NCBI GenBank assembly: GCA_965208575.1
Contig: CBDBOV010000002.1
Location: 480,001-544,000, forward strand
Reading direction: 5' to 3'
DNA: 64,000 nt
Source of the DNA: Spirochaetia bacterium
Lineage (GTDB): Bacteria > Spirochaetota > Spirochaetia > SZUA-6 > Bin103
Shown here in pieces: positions 11,883-16,839 of the stretch; within the stretch, counting starts at the first letter, position 1, and every line of letters begins with the position of its first letter. A program made the translations under genes and the position numbers. The notes beneath the pieces were generated by a model. It saw only the letters and a program-made list of their open reading frames with translations. It did not search any database and was not told the origin of the DNA.

Positions 11883-12593
11883 ATGGGCCACGTATTCGCC
11901 GAACTGGAACTCAGCAATCCGCGGCGTGCCGACTTCGTGCCGGTGCGTGTGAATGCGCTGGTGGACACGGGGGCGCTGATGCTGTGCATCCCGGAGCACG
12001 TCGCCCGCCAGCTCGACCTGCATACCGAATCGGTGCGCGAGGTGTCGGTGGCCGACGGCCGCACGGCGACCGTACCGTACTTGGGCCCGGTGAAGGTCGC
12101 CTTCGGGACGCGGTTCTGCTACGTCGGCGCGCTGGTGATCGGCGGCGAAGTGCTGCTGGGGTCAGTACCCATGGAAGACATGGACCTGGTGGTGAACCCC
12201 GGCCGCCGGCAACTAACGGTCGACCCGGCCAGTCCCAACATCCCCCACGCCCGCGTCAAGCGCTCCGGATGGAGCCGTGGAGTTGCCAGAATCGGTAGCA
12301 TGATCGGCAGCGGTGCTGATGCGGCTTGTGGTTCGGTTTCCCTTTTCGACGAACAGATCGGCATCCTGGACTCATGTCGGGGAACCGAGAAGGATGGCAA
12401 CGGACGTAGTATGCTCAGCCCTGCAACGTCCGGCGTACTTTTGCCTCGGTCTCACTATCCAGACGTGCGTTGGCCAGCATGGAAAGAAACCGGTCCCGGT
12501 CGACTTCCGGGGCTATCTTGGGTATGCCCGGGATCTCGATGTGCGTCGATCCGCCTTTCACCGAGAGCTTGTACTCGCCGGGGGCCAAGGTGA
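11883..12593 (+). CDS. Clan AA (retropepsin-like) aspartic protease; family domain ends at ~12270, remainder looks like read-through
   Basis: ALVDTGA catalytic motif, LLGSVPMEDMDLVVNP; the paralogous copy has TGA where this one has TGG. Confidence 0.88.
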   Translation: MGHVFAELELSNPRRADFVPVRVNALVDTGALMLCIPEHVARQLDLHTESVREVSVADGRTATVPYLGPVKVAFGTRFCYVGALVIGGEVLLGSVPMEDMDLVVNPGRRQLTVDPASPNIPHARVKRSGWSRGVARIGSMIGSGADAACGSVSLFDEQIGILDSCRGTEKDGNGRSMLSPATSGVLLPRSHYPDVRWPAWKETGPGRLPGLSWVCPGSRCASIRLSPRACTRRGPR

Positions 12594-13084
12594 TACGGGT
12601 ATGAACGCAGTCCCACTGGTGCAGATGAGCGAGCTCCAGCGCGGCGGCCCTCTCCCTCGCGCGCCAGTCAGCATCATCACCAAACAACTCTCGCAAAGGG
12701 ACAGGCATGGCGGGGGCGTCGCCGAGATCGAGCTCCGAGCCGGCTAGCCGATGGGCCAGTTGGGCCATGCGGTGAGATACCGCGGCGGAGAGGTACTGTG
12801 GCCCCCGGAGCCGGAGCGGAAGGTTGAGCCACCCGTCTCGTACACCGAATAGGATTGCCGCTGCCAGCCAATCCATCTCGCCGAGCCGGTCGCTGTAGTA
12901 GTCGAAGAGGTCTCCACAGTCTCGGTACAGGAAGAACAACGTCATGGCATGCGCAAGGGGAGTGTTGTGCCGTGCGAAGAGCTCGCTGGCCGTGGAGTCC
13001 GCGATGCCGCTCAGTGACTCAAGAGCTATCCCACCGGCCCCTGGGCCGGCGCAGTCATGAAAGAAACAAGGGTGAGCTATAGTG

Positions 13085-13290
13085 TGGGCAGAGTTCTGGG
13101 TGGAGCGCGAAAGTAGGCCGGCGCGTCACTGGCGTTACGTTCTGCGAACCCGTTCAAGAGCTTGGCCCCGGGGCGGGTGGCGTAGTCATTGGTGAGGTTG
13201 TCAGCCGGCGCGGCCGGGTGGCGATCATCCCGTTCAGGAGAATACCTGCTACACACGCCTTGGCCGCACCACTCAGTCGTAGCGGAGGTT
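13085..13290 (+). ncRNA. Predicted bridge RNA of the IS110 element
   Basis: Contains TCAAGAG (13154-13160), equal to target left flank plus core, and TCAGGAG (13234-13240), equal to donor end plus core; TATAGT -10-like hexamer at 13078; RNA ends inferred. Confidence 0.7.
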
Positions 13291-13292
13291 TC

Positions 13293-14681
13293 ATGGCACG
13301 ACGCAGACACAGACGCAAGGGCAAGGGCAGTCGCACAGCGCAACCAAAGGTGATGCACCCGGACGCTGCCGGCTTGGACATAGGCGCTACCGAGGTGTAC
13401 GCGGCTGTGCGCCCGGAGCGCGACCCGGACCCGATCCGGAACTTTGCTACGTTCACCGCGGACCTGCACGCCTTGGCCGACTGGCTCAAGGAATGCGAGG
13501 TCACCACGGTGGCGATGGAGTCCACCGGTGTGTACTGGATTCCGGTGTATCAGATCCTGGAGGCACACGGCTTCGACGTGGTGCTGGTGAATGCGCGTCA
13601 CGTGCACTCGGTACCCGGTCGGAAGTCCGACGTGGCCGACTGCGAGTGGTTGCGCTACCTGCACTCGGTGGGATTGCTGCGCGGCTCATTCCGCCCTGCC
13701 GACGAGGTGTGTGCACTGCGCTCGGTGCTGCGCCATCGCGACACCTTGATCAAGATGGCGTCGCGCAGCGTGTTGCACATGCAGAAGGCGTACAGCCAGA
13801 TGAACGTGCATCTGCACCATGCCATCTCTGACCTGACGGGGACGACCGGTCTGGCCATTACGGACGCTATCCTGGCGGGTGAGCGGGATCCGGCGCGGTT
13901 GGCCGCTCTGGCCGACCGGCGGATCAAAGCCAGCCGCGAGACCTTGATCAAGGCGCTGCAGGGCGACTGGCGCGCCGAGCACCTGTTGGCGTTGCGGCAC
14001 GCGCGAGCGACCTATGCCCACTACCAACAACTCATCACGGAGTGCGATCAGGAAATCGAAGCCGGCATCCGCGCGTTCGAAGCCAGCAGCGAGCCACCCG
14101 GCGCGGTGGGCGACGACCCACCGGATGAGGGAATCGATGCGGAGCCCGAGGCGCCAACCGAGTCACCGGCCAAGCGGTTCGACCTGCGCGGCCACCTTAC
14201 GCACCTGTTCGGCACTGACCTGACGCTGATTCCCGGCATCGGCGAAAGTACGGCGCTGGTTCTGTTCACCGAACTCGGCCCGGAACTGTCCCGCTTTCCG
14301 ACCGCACCGCAATTCGCCTCCTGGCTGCACCTGTGCCCCCACAACCAGATCACCGGCGGCAAGATCATCAGCTCGCACACCGGTCGGGGCACCAATCGGG
14401 CCGCCCAGGCGCTGCACTGGGCGACCCAGTCGTTGTACCGCAGCCCATCGGCCCTGGGCCAGCACTTCCGCCGCATGCGGGCGCGTCTGGGTACTCCCGA
14501 AGCGACCACTGCAGTCGCGCATAAACTGGCTCGGATCATCTACCATCTGATCACGCATCGCGTGGCCTACGATGACAGCATCCTCGCCGCCGAGGAGCGC
14601 CAGGACCGGCGCCGCTTTGAACGCCGGCTCCGAAGGCAGGCACACGCACTCGGTTATGAGCTTGTCCCGGAGGCCGCCTGA
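13293..14681 (+). CDS. IS110-family transposase/recombinase
   Basis: DEDD RuvC-like motifs GLDIG, AMESTGVYW, KSDVADC; IPGIG and ITGGK C-terminal motifs; GGAGG RBS at 13284. Confidence 0.96.
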   Translation: MARRRHRRKGKGSRTAQPKVMHPDAAGLDIGATEVYAAVRPERDPDPIRNFATFTADLHALADWLKECEVTTVAMESTGVYWIPVYQILEAHGFDVVLVNARHVHSVPGRKSDVADCEWLRYLHSVGLLRGSFRPADEVCALRSVLRHRDTLIKMASRSVLHMQKAYSQMNVHLHHAISDLTGTTGLAITDAILAGERDPARLAALADRRIKASRETLIKALQGDWRAEHLLALRHARATYAHYQQLITECDQEIEAGIRAFEASSEPPGAVGDDPPDEGIDAEPEAPTESPAKRFDLRGHLTHLFGTDLTLIPGIGESTALVLFTELGPELSRFPTAPQFASWLHLCPHNQITGGKIISSHTGRGTNRAAQALHWATQSLYRSPSALGQHFRRMRARLGTPEATTAVAHKLARIIYHLITHRVAYDDSILAAEERQDRRRFERRLRRQAHALGYELVPEAA

Positions 14682-15674
14682 TTGTTGTTTCTCAGGAGTG
14701 TCCTGCAGCTTCCTGACGCCCGCCTGCACCCGCGGGTCCAGGGTCGCCGAGGTCTCAGCCAAGTAGTCGAGCAGCACAGTCTCGGGGTTCTTGGCGTTGC
14801 CCGCCTCGCGCCACTTCGCAAGCCGCTCTACGGCTCCCCAGAAGAGGGCTCCCTGATAGGCGTTCTGCAAACTCGTCCGGTCCGTCTCGGGGTCGCGAGA
14901 AGCCAGAAGCGTCGCGGTTCCTTCCCGCATCCAGGGTTCAAGCCCGGCGAGTATCGCGCCGTCATCCGCCGGCACCGGGGAGACGCCCGGCTCGAATGCA
15001 GTCCGGCACGCTCGAACCGCCTGGTCGCCGAGGTTGCCGAAGAGAAACAGCATCGCCGTGACAGCGCCCGCGGCGAGCGGGCGTTCAAGTGGTACGCTCC
15101 GTTCGCGGGGACCATTCTCGGGCGGCCACTCCGTATCACCACCCCTGGCGAACAGCGCCTTCTTCGTCGCGTCCCTCCTGAAGTCCCCCAGAGGAACGTT
15201 GCCGAAGTCCTTCGCGCTCCTCTCGCACACCAGCCTGTCGTCGCGTGACTGGAAAAGAATCGACTCGATCCGGGACGTGGGGAGCGGCGCGGGTACCAGG
15301 AACACCCACTCGGTCCCGTCGACCTCGTGCGGAAACTGGATCTCCCTCAGGCCACCTTGCCCCACAGCAGCTACTCTGCCCGACAACCCGGTGAGGCCGA
15401 TTCGCACAATGACCGGCATGAGGTGTCCCTCCTGCGTGGCCGACTCGACCGCTGTTGCAGGCGCTTGGTCGACGAACAGGGGTATCCAGCCTGGAAAGCA
15501 CTCCAGCGAGTCGCGATAGTACTTCTCGCCAAACCCGGAGGGCGGCATCACCAGACCGGCCGCGAGCATGTACATCAGGTTGAGGTGATTGGTCACCAGG
15601 AGCGCCGATTTGGGCGCTGGAACTTCCTCCTTGGCATCGGACTTGATCAACATCAACTGGTCAGAGTCGGCCAC

Positions 15675-16839
15675 CTACAGCTCCTTGCGCCGCAGCACTT
15701 CCCGGTCGGTGGGCAGAATACTCTCGATGTCACTGCTACGGCCCCGCTTCATGAACATGAACACCCGGTCCCTGGCCCGGGCGATCATCACGTAGAACAG
15801 ACGCCGAGTAACATCGGGATCGTTCCGTCGAAAGTAGTGTTCGTCGATGTCCGCAAGCACTACCGTGTCGAACTCAAGACCCTTGCACGCCTGCGCGTTG
15901 ATCACCAGGATGCCGCCTTCGTCAAAGCGCACCTGGGGACGTTCATCGCCCCAGAACGTGATGATTTTCGGGGGCGCGTTGTCGAGCTGAACGTCTACTG
16001 ACCGAAGCTGCTGCACGTAACGTCGTCTCACTGTGTTCTTTGGCGTGATGATCCCTACGAGCTGGCGCGGGTTTCGGTCGGCAAAACGCACGACAGCGCG
16101 TGCAACCTTGTTCAATCCCCGTTCGTCGTATCGGTAGAGAAGCGGAGTGGGGCCCCGATCGACCGGGGGAATCTCCGGTGGCGGGCTCGCCGGATCGCCG
16201 GTGTAGAACTCTCGCGCCAACCGTGCCACGTGGTAGCGATTGCGATAGTTCCGCTTGAGTTCGACCACCGCGTCCGTATCGATGGCCAAACAGTCCTGGA
16301 TATCCTTCCGACTGCTGTTTTTTTTCGGTAATCTGCTGATTCTGGTCGGCGACGACGAAGAAACGGTCGAAACCAAGTCCCACCAGTGAGTCATAGAACT
16401 GCCGCGGCATGTCCTGTCCTTCGTCAATCACGAGAAACGGACGCTCGCCGTCATCATTCTTGGGCAAGTCCTGGACGATCTGTTCGACACCGCACCACTC
16501 GATCGCCCGGTAGCCGTTGTCGTTCGCATCCTCCAGGGGAGCGGGTCGACCCGTGACCTCCTTGAAGACCTCCCGGAACCAGGCATCCCATGTCCTGCCC
16601 TCGAGCCGGCCGCCGAACAACTGGCCGCTCGCGCGGTCGAGGAGATGATTGAAGACGAGGAACACGTAGCGGTCCCGATCTCTTTGGTGGCGCCTTGCGC
16701 GGAGCAGAGCGAGCACGGTTTTGCCCGTTCCGGGGCCACCGATGACCAGGTGCTGCCCGGCGCTCGGTAGGGCGCGTACTCTCTCCTGCTCCTTGCTCAA
16801 ATCCTGGATACGTGGCAGCACGAATCTGCGATTGGCCAT
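15675..16839 (-). pseudogene. Compact UvrD/SF1-like helicase-ATPase, +1 frameshift in an A8 run
   Basis: GGPGTGKT, IDEGQD, ADQNQQI in ORF 15943-16839; NYRN, KGLEFD, FYV..ARAR in ORF 15675-16427; deleting one T from 16318-16325 gives a single 387-aa ORF. Confidence 0.85.

Follow-up and report, generated by a model that had tools for sequence, protein, structure and literature searches.

The left non-coding end of an IS110-family insertion sequence in the window (the whole stretch of DNA analysed, 64 kb) most probably encodes a bridge RNA whose target and donor guides can be read directly from its sequence. We give a probability of about 85% to the reading that the element is active, that its RNA carries such guides, and that its IS621-type module is inverted relative to the recombination sites. 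The bridge RNA with readable guides is proposed because the left end has a covarying structure, because two 7-mers lie in its loops, and because these 7-mers change with the flank and with the element end in relatives. Bridge RNAs with such guides are a kind known since 2024, and the principle is not new.

Limits, copies and recombinase of the element

The element, its half-sites and its gene have the following features.

13019-13025, plus strand: left target half-site TCAAGAG in host DNA, with the last two bases, AG, as core (14 of 14 insertions; contiguous with the right flank in the congener G006)
13026-14698, plus strand: IS110-family insertion sequence, 1673 bp (15 exact copies, flank comparison, empty site)
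13034-13049, no strand: palindrome CCGGCC-CCTG-GGCCGG at the left terminus (by eye, without statistics)
13062-13069, plus strand: left arm of a sub-terminal inverted repeat, AGAAACAA, reverse complement of 14685-14692
13293-14681, plus strand: recombinase gene, 462 aa, with DEDD/RuvC-like and Tnp domains (Pfam, NCBIfam)
14352-14354, plus strand: codon for Thr354, aligned with the catalytic Ser241 of IS621 (phmmer alignment)
14685-14692, plus strand: right arm of the sub-terminal inverted repeat, TTGTTTCT, counterpart of 13062-13069
14692-14698, plus strand: left donor half-site TCAGGAG, the last 7 nt of the element, with AG as core (sequence, flank comparison)

The genome holds 15 copies of the element, identical to the letter. 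The initial annotation had placed TCAAGAG at 13019-13025 and 13154-13160 and TCAGGAG at 13234-13240 and 14692-14698, all correctly, and had proposed a comparison of other copies for a TCAAGAG consensus; indeed, TCAAGAG lies directly left of all 14 independent insertions in the source genome. The 15th copy is the downstream member of a head-to-tail pair, and the junction between the two copies, ...TCAGGAG|CTATCC..., is the circle junction that had been predicted. The restored target was also borne out by a real empty site in G006, in which the left flank ...GACTCAAGAG (95% identical to that of the window over 397 nt) runs straight into TGTCCTGCAGC..., reading ...TCAAGAG|TGTCC.... Since this empty site joins both flanks directly, the insert is exactly 13026-14698, with the boundary, and hence the crossover point, ambiguous within the GAG common to the target and the element end. 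The comparison of empty and occupied sites, together with the 14 flanks, shows a sequence-specific insertion without target duplication, in which AG is common to the target and the right end.

The left end, which carries the RNA, is 267 nt long, and the right end extends 17 nt past the stop codon. The arms of the 8-bp sub-terminal inverted repeat are placed asymmetrically, at distances of 36 nt (left) and 6 nt (right) from the respective ends of the element. Of 26 distinct relatives, 13 have the matching 7-mer in their left end, versus 29 of 542 foreign 7-mers, and its variants covary. At the position of the left-terminal palindrome, another palindrome was seen by eye in relatives.

The assignment to IS110 in the initial annotation was confirmed by two Pfam domains in the expected protein, PF01548 (DEDD_Tnp_IS110, RuvC-like; E 6.4e-20) followed by PF02371 (Transposase_20, Tnp; E 1.5e-11), and by NCBIfam NF033542, 'IS110 family RNA-guided transposase' (251.1 bits, cut-off 140). 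The IS621 transposase structure is a distant match (phmmer, E 1.3e-7). In this alignment the catalytic serine of the Tnp domain was not found at the column of Ser241, which is occupied by Thr354, and the same column in relatives alternates between I/V-T-G-G and I/V-S-G. Threonine, too, bears a hydroxyl, and an active element is suggested by its 15 identical copies. The recombinase clade is widespread and is present also on plasmids, namely of Citrobacter, Agrobacterium, Rhizobium and Nostoc. The plasmid records that match the recombinase at E <= 1e-5 number at most 448, from which we infer that the common IS4321/IS5075 elements are excluded.

A covarying RNA structure in the left end

The putative RNA and its parts were assigned as follows.

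13078-13083, plus strand: -10-like hexamer TATAGT, 12 nt upstream of helix P1, with the RNA start possibly nearby (a lead from sequence only)
13094-13277, plus strand: predicted bridge RNA, full-length match of 184 nt to the covariance model R1 (172.3 bits)
13096-13109, plus strand: 5' strand of helix P1, which closes the whole RNA and pairs with 13264-13276 (both-side changes in 12 of 12 pairs, alignment A3)
13116-13167, plus strand: target-binding stem-loop, basal helix 13116-13120/13163-13167, distal helix 13130-13135/13148-13152 (covariation, RNAalifold)
13121-13129, plus strand: 5' side of the target loop, GCGCGUCAC, the position of the right-target guide in Acidobacteriota relatives, here without a match to the right flank
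13154-13160, plus strand: left target guide UCAAGAG on the 3' side of the target loop, equal to the left flank of 14 of 14 insertions
13161-13162, plus strand: handshake-like dinucleotide CU, equal to the first two bases of the element (rule kept in relatives)
13168-13263, plus strand: donor-binding stem-loop, basal helix 13168-13174/13257-13263, distal helix 13190-13200/13222-13232 (alignment A3)
13234-13240, plus strand: left donor guide UCAGGAG on the 3' side of the donor loop, identical to 14692-14698

The segment 13094-13277 is the sole match to R1 in the 64-kb window, and the model also matched relatives, upstream of their recombinase gene (52 matches in 55 sources). An alignment of 11 sequences had 92.2% of its cells paired, versus 34-50% with slid partners. 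In alignment A3, which comprises 49 distinct relatives and was fitted to the covariance model, so that its pair counts lean towards structure, 95.0% of cells were paired (30-47% in slid controls), both-side changes occurred in 34 of 43 pairs, and the covariation score was 0.50, versus at most 0.107 with slid partners. For the donor stem-loop, such changes affected 7 of 7 basal and 7 of 10 distal pairs. The same helices were recovered de novo by RNAalifold, with an extra 3-bp helix in the donor stem-loop. Covariance modelling with homologues, as proposed in the initial annotation, thus yielded a structured RNA, and both 7-mers fall not in stems but in the unpaired 3' strands of its two internal loops.

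The 7-mers could instead act as DNA, as extra recombinase-binding copies of the end and the target, with the left end serving as a protein-binding region or a 5' UTR; the RNA data gave no transcript of the segment, and a sub-terminal inverted repeat does exist. However, the 34 pairs that keep pairing through changes on both sides are characteristic of selection that acts on an RNA structure rather than on sites in duplex DNA. Furthermore, the guides sit in loops, as in known bridge RNAs and seekRNAs, and the protein belongs to a family with members that need such an RNA, according to passages of PMC11208160 and PMC11187229. We therefore regard the action of the 7-mers as DNA as very improbable.

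Folded as a single sequence, the segment was no more stable than its shuffles (z = -0.61), and Rfam gave 0 families at E <= 10 within 12900-14800. A scan for consensus promoters and terminators found none; hexamers similar to TATAGT were noticed by eye at the same place in relatives. A sponge metatranscriptome contained three short contigs from a 95-96% relative, all inside the recombinase gene, which say nothing on expression either way, and three raw RNA runs, whose organism label is that of one DNA source of the element, gave 0 matching reads and hence do not constitute an expression test.

Left guides and an apparently free right flank

The two internal 7-mers are each preceded by CCCGT and spaced exactly 80 nt apart, and they are near-identical, as the initial annotation had pointed out, with a difference of one base. 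After each of them come two bases that equal the start of the element and are handshake-like. CCCGTTCARGAG occurs twice in the 64-kb window, versus 0.01 expected, and TCAAGAG only three times, two of these being the junction and the left end. Beyond the 7 nt, position -8 of the target is C in 11 of 14 insertions (p 2e-4 versus 317 free sites), and positions -10 and -11 are T-rich.

The target guide changes with the left flank, and the donor guide with the right end, in relatives, in support of the earlier proposal of target- and donor-matching 7-mers in the non-coding end. For relative G020, with the guide TGTCAAG, the flank is TGTCAAG in 13 of 16 copies, off by one base in two and not comparable in one; for G003a, flank and guide match in five of five copies. 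The guides AGTCAAG (G022), TGTGAAG (G003b), AATAAAG (L099), TGAATAG (L095) and CCCAAAG (L093) likewise match the respective left flanks. In 40 of 49 loci, the position of the best 9-mer match was 55-80 nt upstream of P1; of these matches, 15 had no mismatch, 16 had one, eight had two and one had four. As for the donor guide, an exact 7-mer was present at the right end in 38 of 46 loci, versus 11 of 460 foreign 7-mers. The dinucleotide that follows the target guide in relatives (CT, CG, TC or TT) equals the start of the element's own left end.

A chance resemblance of flank and end to the left end might be considered, since the 7-mers are short and the genome contains 346 TCAAGAG. It is practically negligible as an explanation: none of 100 shuffles reached two occurrences of the paired motif, one flank is common to all 14 insertions, and the match moves with the guide in relatives under permutation controls, the figures of which overstate independence because the relatives are kin.

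On the right side, Acidobacteriota relatives have a target-loop 5' strand that complements the right flank and covaries with it (GCCGA/TCGGC, GGGGA/TCCCC, GGCGA/TCGC), with 24 mismatches in 102 positions over 17 loci and none of 10,000 permutations as good, these loci being kin. For the element of the window, the 14 right flanks were compared with this strand at offsets 0-3, and no k-mer of it complements more than one of them. Five of the 14 right flanks have CG at +1/+2, which is not convincing (p = 0.09 and 0.035 for the two positions, uncorrected). G020 has the same target-loop 5' strand as the window element and different right flanks, to which, by inspection, this strand has no match. 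The right flank is apparently free, and this element would specify the left half-site only, by 7 nt, the C at -8 and the T-rich positions -10/-11; the tolerance on the right side that the initial annotation had suggested is thus supported.

The right-side guides named in that annotation fared differently. Both sequences are present as described, TAGC at 13280-13283 and gtcatt near 13185, and neither can be assigned its proposed role. They belong to a reading in which the bridge RNA would be identical in layout to that of IS621, with the left guides as found, TAGC as right donor guide, the segment near 13185 as right target guide, and an AG/GAG core that truly differs on the same strand. This reading has the left guides right, and TAGC complements the junction GCTA here and, with a G-U pair, in G003b. 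However, 13280-13283 lies outside P1, beside a GGAGG ribosome-binding site, and does not track the left end of relatives: G005 has ATAGC and the G020 group CACAGG, both with a CTTCCC left end. The segment near 13185 sits in the donor loop rather than the target loop, in a box conserved across relatives with differing flanks, and the right-flank guide of relatives is on the 5' strand of the target loop. The 7-mers, moreover, are on the 3' strands of their loops, the reverse of the IS621 placement that the initial annotation had assumed. An IS621-identical RNA is thus improbable, and we return to the inverted module as the preferred reading.

Two further candidates were considered. GGUGG-CG-UAG (13176-13185), as a possible right donor guide, could pair with CTATCCCACC, the start of the left end, at 9 of 10 positions, one of them as G-T; the pairing weakens in the G020 group, and there is no signal in the donor-loop 5' strand, whose best complementary run to its own left end averages 4.67 nt, versus 4.42 nt for the ends of other elements. 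A segment of the recombinase gene, 13666-13678, is complementary to the left junction at 12 of 13 positions, in one of 24 element types, and was treated as chance.

A probable inverted module and its relation to known systems

For the inverted module, the left end would encode an RNA of about 184 nt, in which the long P1 would enclose two tandem stem-loops with one internal loop each. UCAAGAG, which has the top-strand sequence of the left target half-site together with the AG core, would pair with the bottom strand, and UCAGGAG, on the 3' strand of the second loop, would represent the left part of the circle junction. As in IS621, the RNA would act as a scaffold for recombinase tetramers, and these would synapse the donor junction ...TCAGGAG|CTATCC..., which would be circular or copied-out, with genomic ...TCAAGAG|N...; the strands would then exchange at the AG/CT core, and the insertion would leave no duplication. 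Transcription, the RNA-protein complex, the chemistry and the strand order are what we infer by this analogy.

From its sequence, the system looks like IS621 turned by 180 degrees, with a core that would not be new: contrary to the 'different core' of the initial annotation, AG on the sense strand of the element corresponds to CT on its complement, and CT is the core of IS621. With the DNA read in that orientation, CT would be the core and the 7-mer would be a 5+2-nt 'right' guide followed by the handshake dinucleotide, in the exact layout of IS621, and because of this agreement the module of RNA plus recombinase gene would be inverted relative to the recombination sites.

We compared the element with IS621 and IS622 (Durrant 2024, Hiraizumi 2024, Perry 2025) and with seekRNAs (Siddiquee 2024). 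It shares with IS621/IS622 a left-end non-coding RNA upstream of a DEDD + Tnp recombinase gene, a target loop ahead of a donor loop, both of them internal loops flanked by a basal and a distal helix, guides that include a 2-nt core common to target and donor, a 2-nt handshake-like segment, placed after the guide on the 3' side, that agrees with the other substrate, and scarless insertion with a circle-type junction as donor. According to passages of PMC11208158 and PMC11208160, the IS621 LTG (50-58) is on the 5' side, the RTG (77-80) and handshake (81-82) are on the 3' side, and cleavage occurs after the CT core. In contrast, the bottom-strand ('left') guides are here on the 3' strands of the loops, those of IS621 being on the 5' strands; the sense-strand core reads AG (CT on the opposite strand), versus CT; the main target guide has 5+2 nt, versus 7+2 nt; and the recombinase has 462 aa, versus 326 aa, is only distantly alike and has Thr at the position of Ser241. 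Unlike IS621/IS622, moreover, this element shows no right-flank specificity in its 14 insertions and has a long closing helix around both loops, and an 8-bp sub-terminal inverted repeat.

In the IS1111-subgroup seekRNAs (ISEc11, ISPa11, ISKpn4), the top-strand-complementary segment lies 5' of the bottom-strand-complementary one, as passages of PMC11187229 describe, and this order is also that of our element, which further resembles the subgroup in its covarying sub-terminal inverted repeats (8 bp here, at least 7 bp in the subgroup). Some IS1111 members insert after AA or AG, according to a table in PMC13604230. Unlike the IS1111 guide RNA, which is encoded in a long right end downstream of the gene, the RNA is here upstream, in a long left end, and close protein similarity to the subgroup was not found among the plasmid records (at most 448) at E <= 1e-5. 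The ISEc21 seekRNA (IS110 type) is similar in its upstream non-coding region, its short RNA with target-matching segments and the absence of a target duplication; its bottom-strand match, in the portion of PMC11187229 that treats it, is 5' of the top-strand match, and its transposase has 358 aa in the corresponding part of PMC13604230, whereas our element has the opposite segment order and a 462-aa protein.

It is conceivable, though we hold it only tentatively, that the clade represents a third architectural class of bridge-RNA insertion sequence, with the RNA upstream as in the IS110 type, with guide order, site polarity and sub-terminal repeats of at least 7 bp like those of IS1111, and, in the lineage of the window, with a Thr nucleophile and a single target guide of 7-8 nt. 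If so, the gene module would be inverted relative to the CT-core frame, and this lineage would be a natural 'half-site' bridge recombinase; the left junction would then remain a valid target, which would explain the tandem copies. Large bridge-RNA catalogues may already include the clade, and its architecture may already appear in Extended Data Fig. 10 or the Supplementary Data of PMC11208160, or in Fig. S12 of 10.64898/2026.10.21.760802.

The element matters as a natural, recently active case: its copies number 15 and are identical, 14 of its targets are mapped, an empty site is verified, and its guide rules can be read directly from the genome. Bridge recombinases are under development as programmable tools for genome rearrangement, almost entirely from IS621 and IS622. 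The element suggests that an RNA encoded by the left end can carry the RNA-DNA pairing scheme in reversed polarity, that one lineage tolerates any right flank, and that the nucleophile position can be Thr; it thus bears on half-match recombination, off-target insertion, tandem expansion and strand order. In the relatives inspected, the core is likewise AG on the sense strand, and in a Citrobacter plasmid relative it is AA.

The element, its recombinase and its insertions

The 7-mer TCAAGAG stands at 13019-25 and 13154-60, and TCAGGAG at 13234-40 and 14692-98, with the two internal 7-mers each preceded by CCCGT and spaced 80 nt apart, exactly as the initial annotation had described them. The window contains the 12-letter pattern two times where 0.01 occurrences are expected, none of 100 shuffles reached two, and TCAAGAG is found only three times within the 64 kb. 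The recombinase and the interrupted locus are laid out as follows.

13293-14681: recombinase open frame, 462 aa, with both IS110 domains
12415-13025 and 14699-15674, - strand: open frame of ~527 aa, without Pfam match, split by the element
15675-16839: two frames that overlap each other and adjoin the split frame, one with the N-terminal and one with the C-terminal part of a UvrD-like helicase

The 462-aa protein scored 251 bits against the NCBI model 'IS110 family RNA-guided transposase' (cut-off 140), and its sole solved relative is the IS621 transposase, a distant match (E 1.3e-7). Its Thr354 (14352-14354) aligns with the catalytic Ser241 of IS621; Thr occupies this column in the element, its close relatives and loci L071, L093, L095 and L103, and Ser in the other relatives. 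In the source genome, G000, the 1673-bp segment 13026-14698 is present in 15 copies without a single letter of difference; given these identical copies, the Thr form of the recombinase looks active. These copies represent 14 independent insertions, and TCAAGAG indeed lies directly left of all 14, as the initial annotation had anticipated for the flanks of other copies. In G006, a genome of the same genus without a copy of the recombinase gene, the uninterrupted site reads ...GACTCAAGAG|TGTCCTGC..., and insertion therefore adds exactly 1673 bp with no duplication, the crossover point being ambiguous within the shared GAG. G000 also carries a different, single IS110-family gene (L125, contig C6:69246-69719; 127 bits to PF01548).

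Guide covariation and structure of the bridge RNA

The recombinase gene was detected at E <= 1e-30 in 13 of 61 related genomes, G000 included, and the limits of multi-copy relatives were read in the same way as those of the element. Scanning a single genome for each species added 52 further loci with 42-69% identity (best-segment figures, full-length matches) from Acidobacteriota, Holosporales, Methylobacter, Campylobacterota and others; the clade is also common on plasmids, with 388 records at E <= 1e-10. Every left end contains CCCG, 1-4 nt and a 7-mer ending in AG, present twice, and the first 7-mer of the relatives' left ends is their left flank.

First 7-mer and left flank in relatives (G, related genomes; L, individual loci)
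G020: guide TGTCAAG; flanks exact in 13 of 16 copies, one change in 2, 1 not comparable
G003a: guide TGTCAAG; flanks match in 5 of 5 copies
G022: guide AGTCAAG; flank exact
G003b: guide TGTGAAG; flank exact
L099: guide AATAAAG; flank exact
L095: guide TGAATAG; flank exact
L093: guide CCCAAAG; flank exact

For the wider count we used 49 of the 52 covariance-model matches, leaving out three truncated ones. In 40 of the 49, the closest match to the 7-mer and the two bases after it lay 55-80 nt upstream of the RNA, with 0 mismatches in 15 loci, 1 in 16, 2 in 8 and 4 in 1. Within the Acidobacteriota, a flank had on average 1.04 differences from the guide of its own element and 2.17 from the guides of other members, a fit that 0 of 10,000 permutations equalled, although the loci are kin and their independence is thereby overstated. 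Of the 46 loci with searchable sequence, 38 had an exact copy of their second 7-mer downstream of the gene, in each case preceded by GTT(T/C/A)C, versus 11 of 460 tries with foreign 7-mers; the other eight loci are partial or truncated copies. For the right donor half, no guide was demonstrable.

The RNA was folded with RNAalifold on 11 sequences, by hand refinement and with RNAalifold on 52 model-aligned sequences, all of which were concordant.

13096-109 with 13264-276: helix P1, closing the whole RNA
13116-20/13163-67 and 13130-35/13148-52: target stem-loop; loop strands GCGCGUCAC (5') and U-UCAAGAG-CU (3')
13168-74/13257-63 and 13190-200/13222-32: donor stem-loop; 3' loop strand U-UCAGGAG-AA...

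With an extra 3-bp helix seen in the de novo fold, the donor loop takes on the geometry of the target loop. In the MAFFT alignment 92.2% of cells were paired, versus 34-50% with partners slid by 1-3 columns. For the 49 distinct model-aligned sequences, an alignment fitted to the model, 95.0% of cells were paired, 34 of 43 pairs showed changes on both sides, and the covariation score was 0.50 versus at most 0.107 for slid partners. The covariance model matched the window once, at 13094-13277 (172 bits), and in the relatives it matched upstream of the gene (52 matches in 55 sources). Folding with homologues, as the initial annotation had suggested, gave a shared structure with two internal loops, and both 7-mers, whose placement in paired stems would have spoken against a guide role, lie on loop strands. 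The reading of 13094-13277 as a real bridge RNA is well supported by these comparisons.

As a side observation, a 46%-identical relative, L124 (NZ_CP026698.1, Citrobacter koseri plasmid, 1267-2850), is common on Citrobacter and Klebsiella plasmids, with 61 Citrobacter records; its RNA is shorter (145 nt, 33 bits in the covariance model), and both 7-mers end in AA instead of AG.

Polarity of the guides

In IS621, according to the published reports (PMC11208158; PMC11208160), the bottom strand is bound by each loop's 5' strand (LTG 50-58, LDG) and the top strand by its 3' strand (RTG 77-80, RDG); next to the latter comes a 2-nt handshake guide, which after exchange pairs with the other substrate, and the core is CT. 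In the present element this order is reversed, its strand-sense 7-mers lying on the 3' loop strands. Directly after the target 7-mer comes a dinucleotide equal to the one with which the element begins: CT in the present case, CG in Acidobacteriota and L093/L095/L103, TC in L099/L102/L110/L070 and TT in L098. In the Acidobacteriota relatives, the right flank is matched by a complementary sequence on the target loop's 5' strand, and the two vary together (GCCGA/TCGGC, GGGGA/TCCCC, GGCGA/TCGC), with 24 mismatches in 102 positions over 17 loci and 0 of 10,000 permutations as good. The Acidobacteriota relatives (L072-L105) have as target a conserved palindrome-like site, ...CCGATAAG|TCGGC..., both sides of which are read by the target loop.

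The IS621 scheme is recovered if the DNA is read from its other strand: AG turns into a CT core, the 7-mer serves as a 5+2-nt 'right' guide with the handshake dinucleotide after it, and the 5' loop strand takes the part of the 'left' guide. We therefore infer that the system would work by chemistry like that of IS621, its gene module having the opposite orientation with respect to the sites. According to Siddiquee et al. (PMC11187229), IS1111-type elements and the IS110-type ISEc21 have their top- and bottom-strand matches in opposite orders, with the RNA downstream in the former and upstream in the latter; the clade of this element shares the guide order of the IS1111 type, yet has its RNA upstream.

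An 8-bp sub-terminal inverted repeat (13062-69/14685-92) covaries in relatives, with a matching 7-mer in 13 of 26 types versus 29 of 542 controls. A stretch inside the recombinase gene, 13666-13678, is complementary to the left junction (AG plus the first 11 nt) at 12 of 13 positions; it is probably a chance match, being present in 1 of 24 element types.

Target choice and tandem copies

On both strands, the genome contains 346 TCAAGAG sites versus 354 expected from composition, namely 15 guide-coding sites inside the elements, 14 occupied and 317 free. Compared with free sites, occupied sites were enriched for C at -8 (11/14, p 2e-4), T at -11 (8/14, p 2.6e-4) and T at -10 (7/14, p 0.009), and C stood at -12 in nine of the 14 left flanks; these preferred bases resemble the GTTTC preceding the donor 7-mer at the right end. 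By inspection, no such preference at -8, -10, -11 or -12 was seen in the G020 flanks. From +1 to +10 no position stood out among the 14 right flanks, the best being G at +2 (8/14, p 0.035 uncorrected), and the 5' strand of this element's target loop had no counterpart in them.

Bridge and seek RNAs are established, with 32,190 candidates under 86 models catalogued (10.64898/2026.10.21.760802). In the passages of published text that were examined, we found no description of an upstream RNA with reversed guide order or of a lineage without right-flank specificity, and threonine as the nucleophile residue was not mentioned; existing catalogues may already include this clade.

The fifteenth copy directly follows another, with the junction ...TCAGGAG|CTATCC..., in a head-to-tail pair of two complete copies (L014/L015, contig C4:1265899-1269251), the only such junction in the genome. 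If the right flank is unread, an inserted copy would still present TCAAGAG and then CT at its left junction, and the pair would be the product expected when a later copy enters at that junction. Tandem IS110 modules have been reported to be common (10.64898/2026.08.14.744561), and half-match recombination has been described for IS621 (10.64898/2026.08.31.748434).

Contig C4 of G000 also holds L017 (146529-147241), a second relative (74% identical) in a copy cut short to the left end and the first ~149 codons; its guide is TGTCAAG, it is located after TGTCAAG, and its RNA still scores 169 bits in the covariance model. In G005, a related genome, remnants of further copies flank the element on both sides, and at locus L070 two partial copies lie upstream (484-576 and 845-937), comprising only the 5' RNA part with the target loop. 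The remnants in both recall the reported tandem accumulation of non-coding units.
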